A program made the position numbers and the translations under genes. The notes under the pieces were generated by a model. It made no database searches, was not told where the DNA came from, and worked only from the letters and a program-made list of their open reading frames with translations. This document shows, piece by piece, positions 29,704 to 35,821 of a stretch of DNA of 64,000 nucleotides; the stretch's first letter is position 1, and the number at the start of each line of letters is the position of its first letter. Source of the stretch: Mycobacteriales bacterium (lineage in GTDB: Bacteria > Actinomycetota > Actinomycetes > JAFAQI01); the NCBI GenBank assembly GCA_035547035.1, contig DASZVL010000013.1:66503-130502 (forward strand). Reading direction: 5' to 3'.

Positions 29704-30867
29704 TCATCTGTGTACGGCGAAGACGCTGACCTCGCGCAGCGAGGTGAAGAAGCCGCCGGTGTCGGTCTCGACGCGGACCGCGTCCACGCGCGTACCCGGC
29801 AGTGACGCGACCAGTACGTCGTCGGCGCTGCCGAACGGCTCCGTCGCGACGCGGGTGAACCGCCCGCCACCAGGACTGATCGACACTGTGCAGCTCAGAC
29901 ATCCGCGTACCACGAGCAAGGCGGCCGGTACCGGACGACGCAGGGTCACAGTGACATCGCGGTGGTCGTGCTGGGCAGACCCTGCGCACGGCCCGGCTGC
30001 GCATCGCGGGTCGTCAACCGGTTGCCAGTCCGAGTCGAGGACTCCGTCCGTCAGCCCGCACTTCGGCTGCCGGATCTGCTGACCGCGGCTGTCGGTGACG
30101 CTGCACCCAGCGCCTCGACTCGCGGGCACGTCCGTCCCTCGCAGCTCGAGACTGCTGCTGAACAACGCGTCCCGTCCGTGCAGCCGGCCGGACTGCGCCG
30201 TCGTCAGCAACAGGTGTTCGTCCTCGACGACGCGGGCGTCGTACCCGTTGGTGACAGTGAGGGCGTGGCCGTCAGCGACCGGTGGTGTGCCGGTCTCGGT
30301 CTCGAGTGAGGCTTCGAAACGCGACGGGCGATAACGGAGTGGAAGCGGCGGTGGCACGACGAAGCGACGGTTTCCGAGTGCCCGAACATGAGGCGCGCCC
30401 GCGGCCAACCGGATCCGCGCTTGCGTGGACCCGCGCCGCCAGGGCAGGACGACACTCGTCGCCACACGCGCCGGTCCACGAGCCGCGGCGGCGGTGATGT
30501 TGTAGTCGTCGTGCTCCGCGTTGCGTCCCGGCAGCGACAGCGCGAACGACCCATCTCGAGCCGTGAAGCCGCTGTCATGCGGAGCCGAGCAGCCGAGGAG
30601 GCAGTAGAAGCCGACTGTCGAGAAGGCTCCGATCGCGCGAACTGCCTGCTCTCCGCTCGACAGCGCGACTGAGACCACCACAGTCGCACCGGCGACCGGA
30701 TGGCCAGCCGTGTCGGTCACGAACCCGGTCACGGCACGGCCCTGCACCGGTTGCGCGTGCGGCGGCACCGACGGCGGTGTGGTTGCCGGAATCTGGCCCG
30801 CGGTTCGCGGCTGGGCGCATCCCGCCGCGAGCAGAAGCGCGGCAATCGAGGCGAGTCGCCACCGCAT
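29704..30867 (-). CDS. putative lipoprotein, function unknown
   Basis: Signal peptide with lipobox MRWRLASIAALLLAAGC; 387 aa Ser/Thr/Gly-rich, several Cys pairs. Confidence 0.5.
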   Translation of the reverse strand: MRWRLASIAALLLAAGCAQPRTAGQIPATTPPSVPPHAQPVQGRAVTGFVTDTAGHPVAGATVVVSVALSSGEQAVRAIGAFSTVGFYCLLGCSAPHDSGFTARDGSFALSLPGRNAEHDDYNITAAAARGPARVATSVVLPWRRGSTQARIRLAAGAPHVRALGNRRFVVPPPLPLRYRPSRFEASLETETGTPPVADGHALTVTNGYDARVVEDEHLLLTTAQSGRLHGRDALFSSSLELRGTDVPASRGAGCSVTDSRGQQIRQPKCGLTDGVLDSDWQPVDDPRCAAGPCAGSAQHDHRDVTVTLRRPVPAALLVVRGCLSCTVSISPGGGRFTRVATEPFGSADDVLVASLPGTRVDAVRVETDTGGFFTSLREVSVFAVHR

Positions 30868-31157
30868 CAGGTCAGGCCGTCCCAGCGGGCGCGGCGGAGA
30901 TCGACCCGCTCACCGTCCATCGGGACGCCCTCGGACCTGAGCAAGGCGACTTGCCGGTCGCGGACCTCGGGTGCGCAGGTGCCGTCGGCTCGCACCACGC
31001 GGTACCAGGGCACTTCGCCGCCGTACCGGCCCATCACCGTGCCCACCGTCCGACCGGTGCCCTTACCCATCCATTCGGCAACGTCGCCGTACACCATGAC
31101 CCTGCCCGCGGGGATCGAGTCGACGGCGTCGAGCACCTCGCGCGCGTAAGGCGTCAC
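30867..31157 (-). CDS. MGMT-family protein (methylated-DNA-protein-cysteine methyltransferase DNA-binding domain-like)
   Basis: C-terminal about 95 aa of ORF 30867..31979: IPAGRVMVYGDVAEWMG...GTVMGRYGGEVPWYRVVRADGT; upstream part of the long ORF is Arg-rich junk; start set to GTG 31157. Confidence 0.6.
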   Translation of the reverse strand: MTPYAREVLDAVDSIPAGRVMVYGDVAEWMGKGTGRTVGTVMGRYGGEVPWYRVVRADGTCAPEVRDRQVALLRSEGVPMDGERVDLRRARWDGLT

Positions 31158-31193
31158 GTCCAGAACAGTAGGGCGAACCACTAACGTTCGAGC

Positions 31194-32075
31194 ATGCGGA
31201 TTCTCGTGGTCGGAGGCACCCGGCTGGTCGGACGTCACATCGCGCAGGCTGCGCTCGACCGCGGCCACGAGGTGACGCTGTTCAACCGCGGCAAGACCGA
31301 TCCCGGCGCCTTTCCGAACGCAACCCATCTGGTCGGAGACCGCAACGGCGATCTGTCCGCTCTTGCCGAGGGCACCTGGGACGCCACGATCGACGTGAGC
31401 GCATACACCTCGAAGCAGGTCAGCTCGCTGCTTGCCGCGCTCGACGACCGCTCCGGCCACGTCACGTTCATCTCGACGATCAGCGTCTACAGCCCCGACA
31501 TCCCGAAGCGCGGCTTCACCGAGACGGCGCCCTTGCTCGCCGCTGACTTCGACGAGACGCCGAGCATGGAGAAGTACGGCGAGCTGAAGGTCGGCTGCGA
31601 GAAGACAGCGATGAAAGAGGCGCGACGGGCGCTGCTCACGATCCGCCCTGGATACGTCATCGGGCCCTACGACGAGACCGGCCGCTTCAACCACTGGGTG
31701 AAGGCGGTGGCGGCGGGCCGGCCGTTCATCGGTCCGGACCCCGAGCAGCCGCTGCAGACCGTCGACGGTCGCGACCTCGCCGCATTCACGATCGACGCGG
31801 TCGAACGCGGACGAGCCGGAGACTTCAACGTCACCGCGCCGCAGCAGCCGCCGACGTTCGCGCAGGTGCTCGACACGATCGCTGCGGCGCTCGACGTCAC
31901 GCTGCCCGAAGTCACATGGTCGGCGGCCGGCGACAAGCTGCCGCTGAGCGCCCCGCTCGACTGGTGGCCGTTCATGCACGCCGACGTGTCGAAGGCCGTC
32001 GGCGCCGGCTTCACCTGGCGGCCACTCGCGCAGACGGTCCGCGACATCGCGGACTACGCCGGCATCAAGACCTGA
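31194..32075 (+). CDS. SDR-family NAD-dependent epimerase/dehydratase
   Basis: MRILVVGGTRLVGRHIAQAALDRGHEVTLFNRGK Rossmann motif, 293 aa. Confidence 0.8.
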   Translation: MRILVVGGTRLVGRHIAQAALDRGHEVTLFNRGKTDPGAFPNATHLVGDRNGDLSALAEGTWDATIDVSAYTSKQVSSLLAALDDRSGHVTFISTISVYSPDIPKRGFTETAPLLAADFDETPSMEKYGELKVGCEKTAMKEARRALLTIRPGYVIGPYDETGRFNHWVKAVAAGRPFIGPDPEQPLQTVDGRDLAAFTIDAVERGRAGDFNVTAPQQPPTFAQVLDTIAAALDVTLPEVTWSAAGDKLPLSAPLDWWPFMHADVSKAVGAGFTWRPLAQTVRDIADYAGIKT

Positions 32076-32111: not shown

Positions 32112-33284
32112 TCAGTAGAGAGGTTCGTCTCCGACTACCTGGGTCTGCCAGGCGGTCACGCCGCCCTGCACGTGCTTCGCGTCACCGAAACCGGCGTTCT
32201 TCAGAAGCGCAAGCGCCTCCGCCGACCGCACACCGGACTTGCAATACAAGACCACCGGCTTGTTCTGCGGCAGCTCGGACAGCCGCGACGGCAGCTCACC
32301 CTTCGGGATGAGCACCGCGTCAGGAATGCGCACGATCTCCCACTCGGCAGGCTCGCGGACGTCGACGAGGTAAAGGTCGTCGCCGCGCTGCACCATCGCG
32401 TTGAGCTCTCCGGCGGTGATCGTCGAACCCGCAGCAGCCGCTGAGGCCTCCTCGGACACGACGCCGCAGAACGCCTCGTAGTCGATGAGCTCGGTGATCG
32501 TCGGGTTCTTGCCGCAGATCGCGCACTCCGGGTCCTTGCGGACCTTGACCGAGCGGTAGGTCATCTCGAGCGCGTCGTAGATCATCAGCCGGCCGACGAT
32601 CGGCTCACCGATGCCGGTGATGACCTTGATCGCCTCGTTGACCTGGATCGAGCCGATGGAGGCGCAGAGCACACCGAGCACCCCGCCCTCGGCGCACGAC
32701 GGCACCATGCCGGGCGGCGGCGGCTCCGGGTACAGGCAGCGGTAGCAGGGTCCGTGCTCCGACCAGAAGACCGACGCCTGGCCGTCGAACCGGTAGATCG
32801 AGCCCCACACGTAGGGCTTGTTGAGCAGCACGCACGCGTCGTTGACGAGGTAGCGGGTCGCGAAGTTGTCGGTGCCGTCGACGATCAGGTCGTACCGGCT
32901 GAAGATCTCCATGACATTGGAGGAGTCGAGCCGCTCCAGGTGCAGATCGACCTGCACGAGCGGGTTGATCTCAGCGACCGACGCCTTCGCACTCTCCGCC
33001 TTGGATCGACCGACGTCACTCTGGCCGTGGATGACCTGGCGCTGCAGGTTCGACTCGTCGACGACGTCGAAGTCGATGATGCCGAGCGTCCCGACACCGG
33101 CGGCGGCGAGGTACATGAGAGCGGGCGAGCCGAGGCCGCCGGCGCCGACGCAGAGGACCTTGGCGTTCTTCAGCCGCTTCTGCCCATCCATCGCGACGTC
33201 CGGGATGATCAAGTGCCGCGAATAGCGCCGGATCTCGTTCGGCGTCAGCTCAGCAGCAGGCGCAACGAGCGGGGGAAGCGGCAC
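32112..33284 (-). CDS. moeZ: adenylyltransferase/sulfurtransferase MoeZ (MoeB/ThiF E1-like plus rhodanese)
   Basis: YSRHLIIPDVAMDGQKRLKNAKVLCVGAGGLGSPALMYLAAAGVG ThiF motif, CxxC pairs, C-terminal rhodanese with CKSG active-site loop. Confidence 0.9.
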   Translation of the reverse strand: MPLPPLVAPAAELTPNEIRRYSRHLIIPDVAMDGQKRLKNAKVLCVGAGGLGSPALMYLAAAGVGTLGIIDFDVVDESNLQRQVIHGQSDVGRSKAESAKASVAEINPLVQVDLHLERLDSSNVMEIFSRYDLIVDGTDNFATRYLVNDACVLLNKPYVWGSIYRFDGQASVFWSEHGPCYRCLYPEPPPPGMVPSCAEGGVLGVLCASIGSIQVNEAIKVITGIGEPIVGRLMIYDALEMTYRSVKVRKDPECAICGKNPTITELIDYEAFCGVVSEEASAAAAGSTITAGELNAMVQRGDDLYLVDVREPAEWEIVRIPDAVLIPKGELPSRLSELPQNKPVVLYCKSGVRSAEALALLKNAGFGDAKHVQGGVTAWQTQVVGDEPLY

Positions 33285-33419
33285 AACGTCACCTCAGATG
33301 CAAGATCGGCCAACGGATCGGTACCCGCGGATTTTTCGGCGATCCGAGAAACCTCGGGGGTTCCAAGGGTTGCACAGCGAACAACCCCGCTGCCGAGGCG
33401 TTTCTTCCCGGTCGGGGAC

Positions 33420-35000
33420 CTACCAGGAGAACCAGCGACGGCGCCGCTCGGGCACGACGGTCGCGGGCGCGTCAGGTGAGGCCGGCATCGGCGGGGTTCC
33501 CCATACGGCTTCCTGGTCGAACGGCACTTCCACGCCGGACACCGGCGCCGGCCCTGGCGCGCCGCCCTCGTCAGCCGGGTGGCCGCCGTACGGCGGCTCG
33601 GGCACCCATCGCGCGGCGCGTTGCTCGGCATCGTCGACCGCGGGCCGCTCGATGGACGTCGTGTCGGCGTCATCGTCATCGCCGGCGTCATCGTCGTCGT
33701 CAAGACCGGCCCGGCTGAAGTCGATCTGCGCGACGTCGGCGGCGCCCTCGTCGTCCCCGTCGTCGCCGTACCTGTCGTCGACCTCGTCAGCGCGGGCATC
33801 GTCGCCGTGCCGGCTGTCGCCCTCGTCGTGGTGCGCGGCGGCGATGGGGGCCGGCGGCTCGGGCTGCGGCGGAGCAGGGGCATCGACGAGTGCGACTGCG
33901 CCCGCCCGGCCAAGCAGCGTCTGCGCTAGCGCGAAGACGGCGTCATCCACGTGGGTCGTGATCCGCTGCTCGAGGGCGTTGATCGCGGCGTCGAGGTCGC
34001 CGCTCGGCGCCGGCGACGCCTCGCCGCCGGCAGGCGGGGCGGCCGCCAGCGCGGCGAGCTGGTCGGACAGGCCGGAGAGCTGCTCGCTGATCGGCGACAG
34101 GTCGACCGGCTCGCTCCCGCCGTCGCTGCTCGCGCGGGCCGCGACCACGCCGGCCACGTCCGAGCGCAGCGTCTGCAGCTCGTCGGACAGCTCCGCGAGC
34201 TGCCTGGTCACCGGGGCCAGATCGACCGGGGCACCGGCCGGAGCCGAGGCGGAGCTTTCGCGGGCGGCGACGACGCCGGCCACGTCCGACCGCAGCGACT
34301 GGATCTCACCGGCGAGGGCGCTGAGCTTGGGCTCGAGGCCGGCAAGAGCGCCCTCGTCGATCGTGGCCGGCTGGGCGAGCGCGGCCTGAGTGCCCGCCGC
34401 AAGCGACTCGAGCTTGCCGTGAAGCGACTGCAGGGAGGCGGCGTGGTCGTTGTGCGCCTGCGCGAGGCGCTGCGCGAGCGGGCCCAGCATTCCCTCGATG
34501 GCGGACAGCCGCTCGCTGACCTGGGCGTCCGTCGGGCGCGCCAGGGCCTGTTCGATCCCGCCCAGGCGCTGGCCGAGCGAGCCCTCGATGCCGCCGAGGC
34601 GCTGTTGGAGGCCGTTGAGACTCTCCTGCACGGCCGAGACCTGCTGTCCGTACGACGGCAGCGCCTGCATACCCGTGGTGAGCACGCCGATCGTCTCCGC
34701 CTGGGACCGGACGTGGGCGTCGATCGCACCGAGTGCGCCGCGGGTGTCGGCAAGCTCCTCGCCTCGCTGCGCGACCATGCGGGCGACCCCGTCGAGCCGC
34801 TCGGCCAGGAACCGGACGGCCTCCCGCAGCTCGGCCGTGACCGAGTTGATCGCGTCAGGGTTCTGCGCGGGCTGCTCAGCGCGGAGGGCGGCGACCTCCT
34901 GCCCCAGCCGGATGACCTGGTTGCGAATGTCGACCAAGGCCGACATCGGGTCCGGCGCGGGCACCGGAGCACCCGTGGCGGGGTCAGTGGTCACCGACAT
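33420..35000 (-). CDS. acidic coiled-coil protein with internal tandem repeats (unknown function)
   Basis: Long heptad-like Leu/Ala/Gln-rich region; direct repeat L[AS]ELSDELQTLRSDVAGVVAAR[EA]SS twice; poly-Asp tract DDDDDAGDDDDAD; Pro-rich tail. Start ATG 35000 (or GTG 34994 with better SD spacing); ORF extends to 35231. Confidence 0.6.
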   Translation of the reverse strand: MSVTTDPATGAPVPAPDPMSALVDIRNQVIRLGQEVAALRAEQPAQNPDAINSVTAELREAVRFLAERLDGVARMVAQRGEELADTRGALGAIDAHVRSQAETIGVLTTGMQALPSYGQQVSAVQESLNGLQQRLGGIEGSLGQRLGGIEQALARPTDAQVSERLSAIEGMLGPLAQRLAQAHNDHAASLQSLHGKLESLAAGTQAALAQPATIDEGALAGLEPKLSALAGEIQSLRSDVAGVVAARESSASAPAGAPVDLAPVTRQLAELSDELQTLRSDVAGVVAARASSDGGSEPVDLSPISEQLSGLSDQLAALAAAPPAGGEASPAPSGDLDAAINALEQRITTHVDDAVFALAQTLLGRAGAVALVDAPAPPQPEPPAPIAAAHHDEGDSRHGDDARADEVDDRYGDDGDDEGAADVAQIDFSRAGLDDDDDAGDDDDADTTSIERPAVDDAEQRAARWVPEPPYGGHPADEGGAPGPAPVSGVEVPFDQEAVWGTPPMPASPDAPATVVPERRRRWFSW

Positions 35001-35125
35001 CTCCTCGATCGCGGCTGCTTGGCAAGAAGTATCTCTGTTCTCGCCGACTAACGCAGCCTTCTCCTCCGCAGCATCTGTAACTGGCGCTACGCCCCGATAT
35101 CGCGGATCGTAGTCGGGCGGGCGCG

Positions 35126-35142
35126 CCAGGTATACGACCTGG
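35126..35142. promoter_or_regulatory. candidate TetR operator palindrome in the divergent intergenic region
   Basis: CCAGGTATACGACCTGG (6-bp perfect arms) 44 bp upstream of the TetR start, between divergent genes. Confidence 0.3.
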
Positions 35143-35185
35143 CTGGCCCCGACCCGGGTGGCGAGTCGATACGCTTCGGACCACC

Positions 35186-35821
35186 GTGACCCAAAGCCCT
35201 GGCGCCACCGAGCGCAGCCGCAGGCTGCCACGCTCGGCCCGGCGGGAACAGCTGCTCGGCGCTGCGCAGGAGGTTTTCGTTGCGCACGGCTACCACGCGG
35301 CCGCCATGGACGACATCGCCGAGCGTGCCGGAGTCAGCAAGCCGGTCCTCTATCAGCACTTTCCCAGCAAGCTCGAGCTCTACCTTGCGCTGCTCGAGCT
35401 CCACGCCGACGCGCTGGAGCGCCAGGTTCGCCACGCGTTGGAGAGCACCAGCGACAACCACGACCGGGTGTTCCGCTGCGTCCAGGTCTACTTCGACTTC
35501 GTCGACGAGCCGGGCGGTGCGTTCCGGCTGGTCTTCGAGTCCGACCTGCGCAACGAGCCGATGGTCCGCGAGCGCGTCGACCGCGCCCTGCAACGTTCGG
35601 TCGAGGCGATCGCCGACACGATCGCGAGGGACACCGGTCTGGACCGGGAGCAGGCTGAGCTGCTGTCGTGCGGACTGGCGGGCGCAGCGGAGATCAGCGC
35701 CCGCTGGTGGCTCGACGCGGGCGGTCGGGTCGACAAGCAACGGGCGATCGAGCTGATCCAGGCCCTCGCCTGGCGAGGGATCAGCGGCTACCCCCTCGCC
35801 GCCTTCCCGCCGCTCTCCTAG
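35186..35821 (+). CDS. TetR/AcrR-family transcriptional regulator
   Basis: HTH AAMDDIAERAGVSKPVLYQHFPSKLELYLALLE; 211 aa; GTG start. Confidence 0.85.
   Translation: MTQSPGATERSRRLPRSARREQLLGAAQEVFVAHGYHAAAMDDIAERAGVSKPVLYQHFPSKLELYLALLELHADALERQVRHALESTSDNHDRVFRCVQVYFDFVDEPGGAFRLVFESDLRNEPMVRERVDRALQRSVEAIADTIARDTGLDREQAELLSCGLAGAAEISARWWLDAGGRVDKQRAIELIQALAWRGISGYPLAAFPPLS

Follow-up and report, generated by a model that had tools for sequence, protein, structure and literature searches.

A candidate coiled-coil protein family with an acidic disordered region and an Arg/Trp tail, encoded beside moeZ in uncultured actinobacteria

The gene and its start codon

The window analyzed here is a 64,000-nucleotide stretch of a Mycobacteriales genome, and it carries on its reverse strand a coding sequence for a coiled-coil protein at positions 33420-34994 (524 amino acids), with a GTG start codon at 34992-34994 and a stop codon at 33420-33422. 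The moeZ gene for an adenylyltransferase/sulfurtransferase (NCBIfam MoeZ, 709 bits) lies downstream on the same strand at 32112-33284, 135 bp after this stop codon. On the other side, a FasR-like regulator of the TetR family (Pfam TetR_N, 64 bits), the positional orthologue of Rv3208, is encoded on the forward strand at 35186-35821. The region between the divergent genes (34995-35185) was examined by aligning 10 orthologous regions, by inverted-repeat scans and by pattern search.

The frame at 33420-34994 on the reverse strand is a real gene, and its GC content at the three codon positions (0.81/0.53/0.90) is typical of real genes in high-GC genomes. The enclosing open reading frame in the ORF list spans 33420-35231 on the same strand and offers several starts. 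An earlier note on this DNA had described a protein of 526 amino acids, which corresponds to the ATG at 35000 and is two residues longer than the GTG reading. The GTG at 34994 appears the more likely start, since a ribosome binding site (GAGGAG, 35001-35006, reverse strand) lies 6 nt upstream of it, the ATG reads AAG in one relative (L003), and the NCBI model of a 100% identical protein (P0001) has 524 amino acids. Across the 10 aligned intergenic regions the ribosome binding site and the GTG are conserved and the ATG is not. The protein itself is thus confirmed, with its length corrected to 524 amino acids. We rejected the 603-amino acid frame starting at the GTG at 35231 as the true gene, because it overlaps the start of the TetR gene and because relatives L006-L009 have a 1-nt indel in the part of the frame that lies further upstream. 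A scan of 33200-35300 for sigma-70 promoters and terminators returned no sites, and an Rfam scan of 32900-35500 for riboswitches or leader RNAs returned nothing meaningful.

Protein architecture, conservation and homologues

Two AlphaFold2 models were examined, one of the full-length protein and one of residues 1-364 built with a 40-sequence alignment. Helices were predicted at residues 18-42, 48-153, 159-209, 216-250, 262-292, 302-320 and 334-364, followed by disorder from residue 365 to the C-terminus, which amounts to about a third of the protein (31%). The 106-residue helix shows a hydrophobic periodicity of 3.5 residues (z = 15 against shuffled sequences). The long N-terminal coiled coil described earlier is therefore borne out by the predicted helicity up to about residue 364 and by the heptad periodicity. 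The protein has a net charge of -50, a pI of 4.25 and two Lys residues, and neither a signal peptide nor a transmembrane helix is visible in its sequence.

The highly conserved N-terminal heptad coiled-coil domain (34374-34949, reverse strand; residues 16-207 in the 524-amino acid numbering) has the core AELREAVRFLAERLDGVARMVAQRGEELADTRGALGAIDAHVRSQAETIGVL..GMQALPSYG, with columns invariant in alignments A1, A2 and A6 and pLDDT values of 80-92. It is followed by a variable repeat region (34041-34352, reverse strand) consisting of copies at 34227-34352 and 34101-34226, which encode residues 217-258 and 259-300, and a partial third copy at 34041-34100. Self-comparison gave 20 identical residues out of 36 in the best register, and the repeat core is conserved at the DNA level, with a mean column identity of 69% in a three-way alignment including the partial copy. 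The tandem repeat reported in the earlier note is real, but its period is 42 amino acids rather than about 35. Among homologues the repeat unit has been gained, lost or replaced. Next comes a conserved helix, LEQRITTHVDDAVFALAQTLLGR (33912-34001, reverse strand), carrying the family motif E-x-R-x3-H-[VI]-D-[ED]-A-[VI]-x-A-L-A. The acidic disordered linker (33561-33902, reverse strand) comprises 114 amino acids with a net charge of -28 and pLDDT values below 50, and includes a poly-Asp block as well as two short motifs, DFS and PFDQE..W. Both features pointed out previously, the acidic block DDDDDAGDDDDADTTSIERPAVDD and PPYGG, occur in the protein. Finally, the chain ends in the cationic-aromatic tail RRRRWFSW (33423-33446, reverse strand), which is invariant or nearly so in alignment A1 and recalls Arg/Trp-rich membrane-active peptides such as tritrpticin (VRRFPWWWPFLRR). 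The charge of the tail is +4, and its interfacial partitioning term of -1.5 kcal/mol is favourable, although this hydrophobic term is weak beside the -4 to -6 kcal/mol at which real Arg/Trp peptides partition.

High-GC genomes yield long spurious reading frames, several frames overlap this gene on the opposite strand, and the protein is largely of low complexity, all of which would fit a degenerating or spurious frame with no function. This reading is refuted by the selection and conservation data and retains practically no chance of being correct. All nine close orthologues are intact, and comparisons with L001-L004 gave dN/dS values of 0.23-0.33 for the whole gene, 0.08-0.12 for the N-terminal domain, 0.34-0.42 for the repeat region, 0.46-0.73 for the acidic disordered region and 0.23-0.5 for the C-terminal tail. 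In addition, the third-position GC content is 0.90, the ribosome binding site is conserved, and many metagenome-assembled genomes (MAGs) carry intact orthologues with an invariant tail. The gene is under purifying selection and is not decaying. The earlier note had named absent or frameshifted orthologues in close relatives as the sign of a degenerating frame; instead they are present, intact and under purifying selection. The gene is real, and the strand assigned to it is correct.

Beyond generic coiled-coil similarity, the protein appears to contain no enzymatic or known domain. Scans against Pfam, NCBIfam, PHROGs and PADLOC returned only sub-threshold coiled-coil noise, from families such as Baculo_PEP_C, NPV_P10, Dynamitin, Apolipoprotein and SMC. 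DivIVA (PF05103) was absent from the 14 sub-threshold coiled-coil families found by hmmscan against Pfam at E<=0.1, and six distant family members likewise gave sub-threshold coiled-coil matches and no DivIVA in Pfam. No ATPase head of the SMC/MukB type was detected: NCBIfam SMC_prok_B reached 18.4 bits against a cut-off of 567 over the coiled coil only, and no globular domain was modelled. The apolipoprotein A1/A4/E domain (PF01442), known from lipid-binding helical proteins and built of amphipathic 11- or 22-residue repeats, scored 17.1 bits against a cut-off of 90, and the main helix repeats every 3.5 residues rather than every 3.67. PspA_IM30 (PF04012), which has a helical hairpin fold, was absent from the Pfam matches, and no PspA/IM30 protein occurred among the 50 Foldseek matches listed. 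Foldseek searches of the PDB with both models found nothing at E<=0.001, the best E value being about 1. PHROGs revealed no phage context, and no DNA- or RNA-binding domain was found in Pfam or NCBIfam. In a profile search of the PDB, all matches were either coiled coils of trimeric fibres or designed helical bundles, the best sequence matches to the family profile being the reovirus sigma-1 tail and T4 fibritin (E 1e-6 to 8e-4 over about 115-130 residues). These matches cover only the generic coiled-coil repeat, and the protein has no head or foldon; we judge the likeness to be compositional. The absence of an enzymatic motif, as stated in the earlier note, thus agrees with the Pfam, NCBIfam, PDB and Foldseek results, and the profile and fold searches run did not place the protein in a known family. 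The earlier note had found the protein reminiscent of polar or division scaffolds or of nucleoid-associated proteins, but no similarity to DivIVA/Wag31, MukB/SMC or nucleoid proteins turned up in these searches.

An exhaustive profile search, with clusters defined at 50% identity, retrieved 569 cluster representatives at E<=1e-3, of which 197 remained at E<=1e-10 and 70 at E<=1e-30. The window protein belongs to a sizeable and apparently undescribed family of coiled-coil proteins. The organism-named matches all come from Mycobacteriales, Frankiales or Actinobacteria MAGs, except for a 501-amino acid match (P0006) labelled Candidatus Limnocylindria. Word-indexed homology searches and cluster look-up for a named or cultured homologue yielded only hypothetical proteins encoded in MAGs and metagenomes. 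As far as these searches reach, the family is so far confined to soil actinobacterial lineages with no cultured representative.

The helix motif is present in 215 of 276 retrieved proteins, with its E, R, H, D, A, A, L and A residues invariant across alignments A2, A3 and A6, and the window protein matches it with LEQRITTHVDDAVFALA. The C-terminal tail motif follows in 181 of these 215 proteins, and takes the form [RK]3-4-(P)-W-[WF] followed by RPGG, RPGD or SW; most members contain the Pro (PWWRPGG), and the window protein conforms through RRRRWFSW. RPGG is the commonest ending, the chains terminating in GG in 27%, GD in 18% and SW in 15% of the family. The coiled-coil part ranges from 67 to 768 amino acids and the disordered region from 50 to 546 amino acids across the family, the latter with a median net charge of -29. 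The wide variation of both lengths suggests that these parts behave like spacers. The family follows a fixed plan, with a variable coiled coil, the invariant helix H-V-D-E-A-V-x-A-L-A, an acidic disordered region and an Arg/Trp tail. Distant members also carry an N-terminal motif, S-E-R-M-Q-A-L-L-S-R-A-V-E-E-Q-x-x-E-Q-R, which neither the window protein nor its closest clade has; this clade may thus have diverged in function.

Neighbouring genes and the intergenic region

By tblastn, moeZ was located just downstream of the coiled-coil gene in each of the 26 family loci with sufficient flanking sequence, at protein identities as low as 25%, and it is the only neighbour common to them. However, the two genes are often separated by a DUF3152 gene or by a CsbD gene of opposite orientation, which argues against an obligate operon, and the linkage of the family with moeZ is positional only. 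Rv3207c of mycobacteria has been assigned to DUF3152 (PMC3726780). Like the coiled-coil gene, it lies upstream of moeZ on the same strand, but the two are unrelated in sequence and the window protein has no match to DUF3152 (PF11350), as the earlier note had indicated in placing an unrelated mycobacterial gene at this position. Some relatives (L032, L025) have the two genes next to each other, so that the coiled-coil gene is not simply a diverged or replacement DUF3152 gene. In relatives, a conserved gene of 216 amino acids lies upstream of the coiled-coil gene and gave nothing above threshold in a Pfam scan. Distant family members also adjoin Peptidase_S51 and alpha/beta-hydrolase genes; together with moeZ, this adjacency hints at a possible metabolic link that a scaffold model leaves unexplained.

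Gly-Gly is the terminus activated by enzymes of the MoeB/ThiF type. The constant presence of moeZ immediately downstream on the same strand, together with RPGG as the commonest family terminus, would fit a functional coupling in which MoeZ adenylates or thiocarboxylates the C-terminus as a non-canonical ubiquitin-like substrate, or in which the protein localizes MoeZ. We regard this coupling as very unlikely, given the genes that often intervene, the many family tails ending in GD or SW, a window protein that ends in Trp, and a model with no beta-grasp fold. The features of MoaD, CysO and ThiS, the ubiquitin-like sulfur carriers on which MoeZ acts, are also missing, as the protein is all-helical and ends in Ser-Trp, and as GG is found in 27% of the family. 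A role of the tail as Gly-Gly substrate of the adjacent E1-like MoeZ was rejected on the terminal-residue statistics.

The divergent regulator is probably a FasR orthologue. It scored 259.7 bits against NCBIfam FasR (NF053731), which falls short of the cut-off of 330 although the next family reached no more than 62 bits, its best PDB matches were the FasR entries 6O6P and 6O6N (E 1e-54), and the gene order TetR-DUF3107-MiaE_2-DEAD is conserved as in the Rv3208-Rv3211 type of synteny. The orthology and the conserved gene order indicate that its adjacency to the coiled-coil gene is ancestral synteny. In Mycobacterium tuberculosis the same regulator adjoins the unrelated Rv3207c, which makes the adjacency positional. 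Distant family members have a TetR gene 1-6 kb away with other genes between, or none within 6 kb. Based on these observations, the adjacency is probably inherited synteny confined to the closest clade.

The intergenic region holds several elements besides the ribosome binding site, namely an invariant GATACT block (35028-35033, reverse strand), a sequence resembling a FasR site (ACTGGCGCTACG, 35080-35091), an imperfect inverted repeat CTACG..CGTAG (35087-35112), a palindrome with the core CCAGGTATACGACCTGG (35126-35142) and, directly in front of the TetR start, the block TCGATACGCTTCGG. The palindrome extends to 35119-35149 with 13-nt arms that are 85% complementary, and chance alone would give 0.12 matches with no more than one mismatch in the window. 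The 17-bp palindrome described in the earlier note therefore exists as a statistically unusual inverted repeat, and the genes are divergent as stated there, but the gap of 185 bp becomes 191 bp when measured from the GTG at 34994 to the TetR start at 35186.

These features could be read as a regulatory arrangement, in which the TetR protein binds the palindrome and represses or otherwise controls the gene, making its product a TetR-controlled scaffold. The short divergent spacing, the unusual inverted repeat and the conserved blocks, including ACTGGCGCTACG, speak for such control. Nevertheless, we consider it doubtful. First, none of the nine close relatives (L001-L009) has the palindrome in its aligned intergenic region, and it is specific to the window genome. 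Second, ACTGGCGCTACG matches both ends of the FasR co-crystal oligonucleotide (PMC7382501) with a chance expectation of 0.05, but 4 nt are missing, so that its spacing is wrong. Third, the described target of FasR is the fas-acpS promoter, on which it acts as an activator (PMC7382501). Finally, the synteny described above, with the TetR gene distant from the target or not within 6 kb in more distant members and the unrelated gene beside it in M. tuberculosis, places the regulator there by inheritance. Control of the coiled-coil gene by its TetR neighbour, as put forward in the earlier note, is not supported.

A possible scaffold and its alternatives

Our best guess, to which we give a probability of about 0.4, is that the protein forms an oligomeric scaffold in the cytoplasm and is held in place through its cationic-aromatic tail. 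The oligomerization, the binding partner of the tail and the scaffold role are what we infer. The protein would be cytoplasmic, non-enzymatic and elongated, with the N-terminal heptad coiled coil as the probable module for oligomerization and partner binding. Dimeric or trimeric assembly of the coiled coils would bring two or three of the cationic-aromatic tails together, and the clustered tails may anchor the assembly to an anionic surface, with the inner face of the cytoplasmic membrane as the first choice. The acidic tether, repelled by such a surface, would keep the N-terminal platform at a distance, where it could recruit or organize other proteins, and the length of the coiled-coil spacer may change by gain or loss of repeat units. 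A structural or scaffold role had been suggested in the earlier note, and the coiled coil, the acidic disordered region and the terminal motif fit such a role. By homology, none of the family members can be connected with membranes, division or polarity. In addition, the weak hydrophobic term of the tail implies that membrane binding would need avidity.

The tail, 8-11 residues long and containing Pro, might just as well dock onto a protein or bind nucleic acid. If the Arg/Trp tail docks onto a specific protein or binds nucleic acid instead of lipid, the protein would be an adaptor or a nucleoid- or RNA-associated factor, with the acidic region autoinhibitory or mimicking nucleic acid. In FtsZ and SSB, an acidic disordered region is followed by a conserved terminal peptide that docks onto partners, and the layout of our protein resembles theirs. 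Moreover, the tail is short and in most members contains Pro, what is conserved in it is a sequence motif and not an amphipathic helix, and it adds little hydrophobic drive for membrane binding. Against this, no partner can be named, no nucleic-acid-binding domain turned up in Pfam or NCBIfam, and the pI of 4.25 and net charge of -50 make bulk nucleic-acid binding unlikely. The FtsZ and SSB peptides also differ in being acidic or hydrophobic and in sitting on globular enzymes or DNA-binding domains, while the present one is cationic-aromatic and is attached to a coiled coil, although both end a disordered linker of variable length. We hold docking of this kind to be possible but somewhat unlikely.

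The proposed tethered scaffold can be compared with known coiled-coil systems. DivIVA/Wag31, a polar scaffold of actinobacteria, is likewise a cytoplasmic oligomeric coiled coil with no enzymatic domain, and its combination of a coiled coil with a short surface-binding element is the logic we propose here. However, DivIVA binds the membrane via a folded N-terminal domain, whereas the candidate anchor of our protein is a C-terminal peptide behind a 114-residue acidic region, and our protein is much longer, bears repeats and has no DivIVA-domain match. Scy, FilP and RsmP, actinobacterial proteins that are rich in coiled coil and resemble intermediate filaments, share long rod-like coiled coils of repeated units whose length varies between species. 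They are almost wholly rod, with unusual 51-residue or hendecad repeats, whereas the main helix here is heptad (3.50, z = 15), the repeat is 42 amino acids long and 31% of the chain is disordered, so that the architecture sets it apart. PopZ, the polar organizer of Caulobacter, combines an acidic disordered linker rich in Pro, Ala, Glu and Asp with helical modules for oligomerization and interaction. Its module order is reversed, it is unrelated in sequence, lacks an Arg/Trp tail and comes from another phylum; by analogy only, the comparison would suggest a hub or condensate-type scaffold.

Taken further, the family might represent a new organizing scaffold specific to uncultured Frankiales-like actinobacteria, in which clustered Arg/Trp tails hold coiled-coil multimers at the membrane or at some other anionic surface, the acidic regions form a charged brush or condensate that positions partners, and the spacer is tuned by gain and loss of repeats. 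We put this fuller picture forward as a speculation that is rather improbable as a whole.

Coiled-coil scaffolds such as DivIVA, Scy, FilP and PopZ organize bacterial growth, division and polarity, and new ones are rarely recognized because profile searches see only a generic coiled coil. The present analysis also corrects an attractive regulatory story, in that the TetR neighbour appears to be the fatty-acid-synthase regulator FasR in an inherited position. Should it turn out to be an ordinary structural protein, better annotation would be the only practical gain. The family as now defined comprises about 200 or more clusters at 50% identity, can be diagnosed by three motifs and keeps a constant position beside moeZ, which makes it a concrete target for heterologous localization and lipid-binding tests and a candidate for a Pfam/DUF entry. 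If the proposed function is true, these actinobacteria would possess a scaffold comparable in function to PopZ or DivIVA but of separate evolutionary origin.

The gene, its start and its relatives

The target gene lies on the minus strand in a reading frame that extends from 33420 to 35231 in the ORF list, and the 526-aa reading of the earlier note begins at the ATG at 35000. The GTG that follows GAGGAG after 6 nt is kept in ten orthologous upstream regions, while the ATG is replaced by AAG in L003, one of the nine loci of the closest clade (L001-L009). Since this GTG is conserved and the NCBI model of the identical protein has 524 aa, we place the gene at 33420-34994, with a gap of 191 bp to the TetR start at 35186. 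The gene and its strand were correctly assigned, and the GTG start (524 aa) is favoured over the ATG. As described, the protein contains the PPYGG motif and the acidic block DDDDDAGDDDDADTTSIERPAVDD and ends in ...VVPERRRRWFSW; its net charge is -50, its pI is 4.25, and it has only two lysines. The codon-position GC of 0.81/0.53/0.90 is typical of a real gene at a genomic GC of ~70%. The GC content inside the gene (33500-34500) was 0.74-0.77, compared with 0.65-0.70 on either side; this rise is accounted for by the Ala/Gly/Pro/Asp-rich composition and so is no evidence of foreign origin.

The first homology search retrieved 51 proteins, all from metagenomes or MAGs, and any names were 'hypothetical protein' or generic automatic labels such as 'predicted nucleic acid-binding Zn-ribbon protein'. 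Those with an organism label were assigned to 'Mycobacteriales bacterium' or 'Frankiaceae bacterium', except P0006 (501 aa, 74% identity), whose label is Candidatus Limnocylindria. Among genomes sampled at one per GTDB species, 30 loci were found, all in MAGs and none in isolates. When we searched 1.84 billion cluster representatives exhaustively with a profile, 569 matches were obtained at E<=1e-3, 197 at E<=1e-10 and 70 at E<=1e-30, and no cultured organism or informative name emerged from further profile searches and a cluster look-up. The earlier note had raised the possibility that orthologues are absent or frameshifted, and this was refuted: the nine close orthologues are intact and share the C-terminal tail. 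When the window gene was compared with L001-L004 (Nei-Gojobori), dN/dS was 0.08-0.12 in the N-terminal domain and 0.13-0.35 in the conserved helix; the repeat region gave 0.34-0.42, the last 46 residues 0.23-0.50 and the acidic region 0.46-0.73. Codon GC, intact orthologues and purifying dN/dS bear out the observation of a real gene, and the target is a functional gene with many relatives.

Modular plan and predicted fold

The family alignments (A1, A2, A3, A5 and A6) revealed a single modular plan. An N-terminal coiled coil, of which ~100 residues are nearly invariant in the clade of the window (AELREAVRFLAERLDGVARMVAQRGEELADTRGALGAIDAHVRSQAETIGVL..GMQALPSYG), is followed by a coiled-coil stretch of very variable length and by an invariant helix, E-x-R-x3-H-[VI]-D-[ED]-A-[VI]-x-A-L-A, with RRRR next in most members. 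A disordered, acidic and Pro/Ala-rich region then leads to the C-terminal tail [RK]3-4-(P)-W-[WF], which continues with RPGG, RPGD or SW. The helix motif was present in 215 of the 276 retrieved proteins, and 181 of these 215 carry the tail; the tail-less examples printed, P0207 and P0088 among them, have unrelated sequence at their C-termini, which would fit truncation of the gene model by the end of a contig. The segment before the helix motif spans 67-768 aa and the disordered region 50-546 aa (median net charge -29). The N-terminal heptad coiled coil is strongly constrained and the terminal peptide is constrained, and the spacer and disordered region are free to vary in length. More distant members also contain an N-terminal S-E-R-M-Q-A-L-L-S-R-A-V-E-E-Q-x-x-E-Q-R motif, which the clade of the window has lost.

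The internal repeat had been described with a period of ~35 aa; the repeat is real, and its measured period is 42 residues. Two copies (aa 217-258 and 259-300) share 20 of 36 residues in the best register, and a partial third copy follows aa 300. At the DNA level the relationship of the copies is clear (mean column identity 69% in a three-way alignment). Tandem Repeats Finder did not report the 42-aa repeats; its only finds were short arrays of Asp codons within the acidic block. This unit is confined to the closest relatives and is missing altogether in more distant homologues; P0011 has an additional repeated segment containing its VDL-to-SDQL portion, and the repeat of P0018 is unlike it.

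Two AlphaFold2 runs agreed in predicting a protein that is helical to residue 364 and disordered beyond, with helices at 18-42, 48-153, 159-209, 216-250, 262-292, 302-320 and 334-364. Fourier analysis of the 106-residue helix gave a 3.50-residue period of core hydrophobics with a power 15 standard deviations above shuffled sequences, indicating a canonical heptad coiled coil.

Mapping to a known family had been raised as a refutation, and none was found by Pfam, NCBIfam, PHROGs, PADLOC, a PDB profile search or Foldseek. Pfam and NCBIfam scans of the target, and Pfam scans of distant members, gave nothing but coiled-coil families below threshold (Baculo_PEP_C at 30.6 bits, cut-off 38; Apolipoprotein at 17, cut-off 90; SMC at 18, cut-off 567); DivIVA, PspA and DUF3152 were absent from the listings for the target, and PHROGs and PADLOC gave no match to it. 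Against PDB sequences, the family profile matched only designed bundles and trimeric fibre coiled coils (reovirus sigma-1, E 1e-6, and fibritin), in every case inside the generic repeat region, and Foldseek of both models against the PDB gave no match below E of about 1. The target is a member of a new motif-defined coiled-coil family of uncultured actinobacteria.

Genomic neighbourhood and the FasR-like regulator

The window order is moeZ (-), target (-), FasR-like TetR (+), DUF3107 (+), MiaE_2-like (-) and DEAD-box helicase (+), which is the Rv3206c-Rv3211 arrangement of M. tuberculosis with Rv3207c in place of the target. Rv3207c is a DUF3152 protein (PMC3726780), and the target has no DUF3152 match, in agreement with the claim that mycobacteria carry an unrelated gene at this position. 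The target and a DUF3152 fragment both occur in L032 and L025, so the target does not merely stand in for DUF3152.

When the 30 loci were examined by tblastn, moeZ was the sole constant neighbour, downstream on the same strand in 26 of 26 loci with sufficient contig, even where the encoded protein is only ~25% identical to the target. That the target is coupled to MoeZ by way of a Gly-Gly terminus is unlikely, because only 27% of family tails end in GG, the window protein terminates in Trp, and the fold is helical.

The wider-family order is Ku, a 216-aa protein, Peptidase_S51, an alpha/beta-hydrolase, the target, CsbD on the opposite strand, sometimes DUF3152, and moeZ. The run from Ku to the target is on one strand in L031 (4549-11720), L032 (3700-13563), L016, L023 and L025-L028. 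In distant relatives the Peptidase_S51-like and hydrolase genes overlap by 4 nt, suggesting an operon, and LigD is nearby. In the clade of the window, the Ku, 216-aa, S51, hydrolase, CsbD and LigD genes have been lost from this interval. A conserved protein of ~215 aa (VTVTDYAEIVAALR...), with genes at L012 5001-5642, L031 5625-6275, L010 2459-3085 and L011 5156-5782, is encoded directly upstream of the target in L010-L015 and L018; nothing in Pfam matched it above threshold, the sole match being a weak LeuA_dimer (E 7e-4), and it represents a second uncharacterised family tied to the locus. In L032 (8001-11180; P0221, 1059 aa) an alpha/beta-hydrolase domain is fused in frame with a family member. 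This may be an assembly or frameshift artefact, not a true domain fusion, since the contig also has moeZ broken into separate ThiF and Rhodanese genes and a DUF3152 fragment of only 109 aa. Elsewhere in the window, a 370-aa ORF (30867-31979, minus strand) overlaps an epimerase gene on the opposite strand; probably only the last ~100 codons of this ORF are real, and by eye these resemble the DNA-binding domain of methylated-DNA-protein-cysteine methyltransferase of the Rv3204 type. An adjacent 387-aa ORF (29704-30867, minus strand) has a lipoprotein-like N-terminus and weak CarboxypepD_reg/Big_1 matches, and is conserved in L004, L007, L009 and L011.

The best NCBIfam model of the TetR protein was FasR (260 bits, equivalog cut-off 330; next family 62), and its best PDB matches were 6O6P (E 1e-54) and 6O6N (E 2e-52), the M. 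tuberculosis FasR structures. FasR has been described as a fas-acpS activator that long-chain acyl-CoA releases from DNA (PMC7382501). The earlier note proposed that this regulator controls the target through a 17-bp palindrome. The palindrome is present at 35126-35142, extends to 13-nt arms, and has a chance expectation of 0.12 per window for a match with <=1 mismatch. When ten orthologous intergenic regions were aligned, however, its arms proved not to be conserved; the window and L001-L004 have only a CGT(R)TAC core in common, and L006-L009 lack the segment. The TetR block adjoins the target only in L001-L009; 1-6 kb of other genes separate the two in L010-L012, L020, L029, L031 and L032, and in L013-L018 the search to 6 kb from the target found none. 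TetR control of the target is thus not supported.

Other elements of this region are invariant in all ten intergenic regions, namely TCGATACGCTTCGG (35164-35177), directly upstream of the TetR GTG start, and GATACT (35028-35033, minus strand), ~21 nt upstream of the target RBS. The former contains TACGCT, a TANNNT-type -10 that would yield a near-leaderless TetR mRNA. An imperfect inverted repeat, CTACGATCCG ... CGTAGCGCCAGTT (CTACGCCCCGATATCGCGGATCGTAG, 35087-35112), has arms conserved in the window and L001-L005 and a variable spacer of 16-20 nt. Its second arm gives ACTGGCGCTACG (35080-35091), which overlaps this repeat and agrees at both ends with the M. tuberculosis FasR co-crystal oligonucleotide, TACTGGCGAGTTCTACGTACGGGTA (PMC7382501), with 4 bases missing. 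The ACTGGCGCTACG pattern was found a single time in the window, where 0.05 are expected; it provides a lead for FasR autoregulation and does not speak for control of the target by the regulator. The element at 35080-35112 may serve in FasR autoregulation or form an RNA hairpin. Scans around the target for Rfam families, sigma-70-type promoters (consensus promoter scan) and intrinsic terminators found none.

A possible scaffold function

The target is a non-enzymatic, cytoplasmic protein, in whose sequence no signal peptide or transmembrane helix is visible. We suggest that the coiled coil would oligomerise, and that the clustered tails, with a +4 charge each, would hold the assembly on an anionic surface, for which the inner membrane leaflet is the most plausible candidate, with the acidic tether keeping the N-terminal platform off that surface. 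The interfacial partitioning term of RRRRWFSW is -1.5 kcal/mol, compared with -4 to -6 kcal/mol for true Arg/Trp antimicrobial peptides. Since this hydrophobic term is much weaker, membrane anchoring would depend on avidity, and a tail for protein docking or nucleic-acid binding is a serious rival to the membrane anchor. The scaffold reading is reasonable and unproven. DivIVA, Scy/FilP and PopZ are the closest functional analogies, and the target fell in none of these families when membership was tested or considered. In kind, it would belong with the bacterial coiled-coil-rich scaffold proteins.
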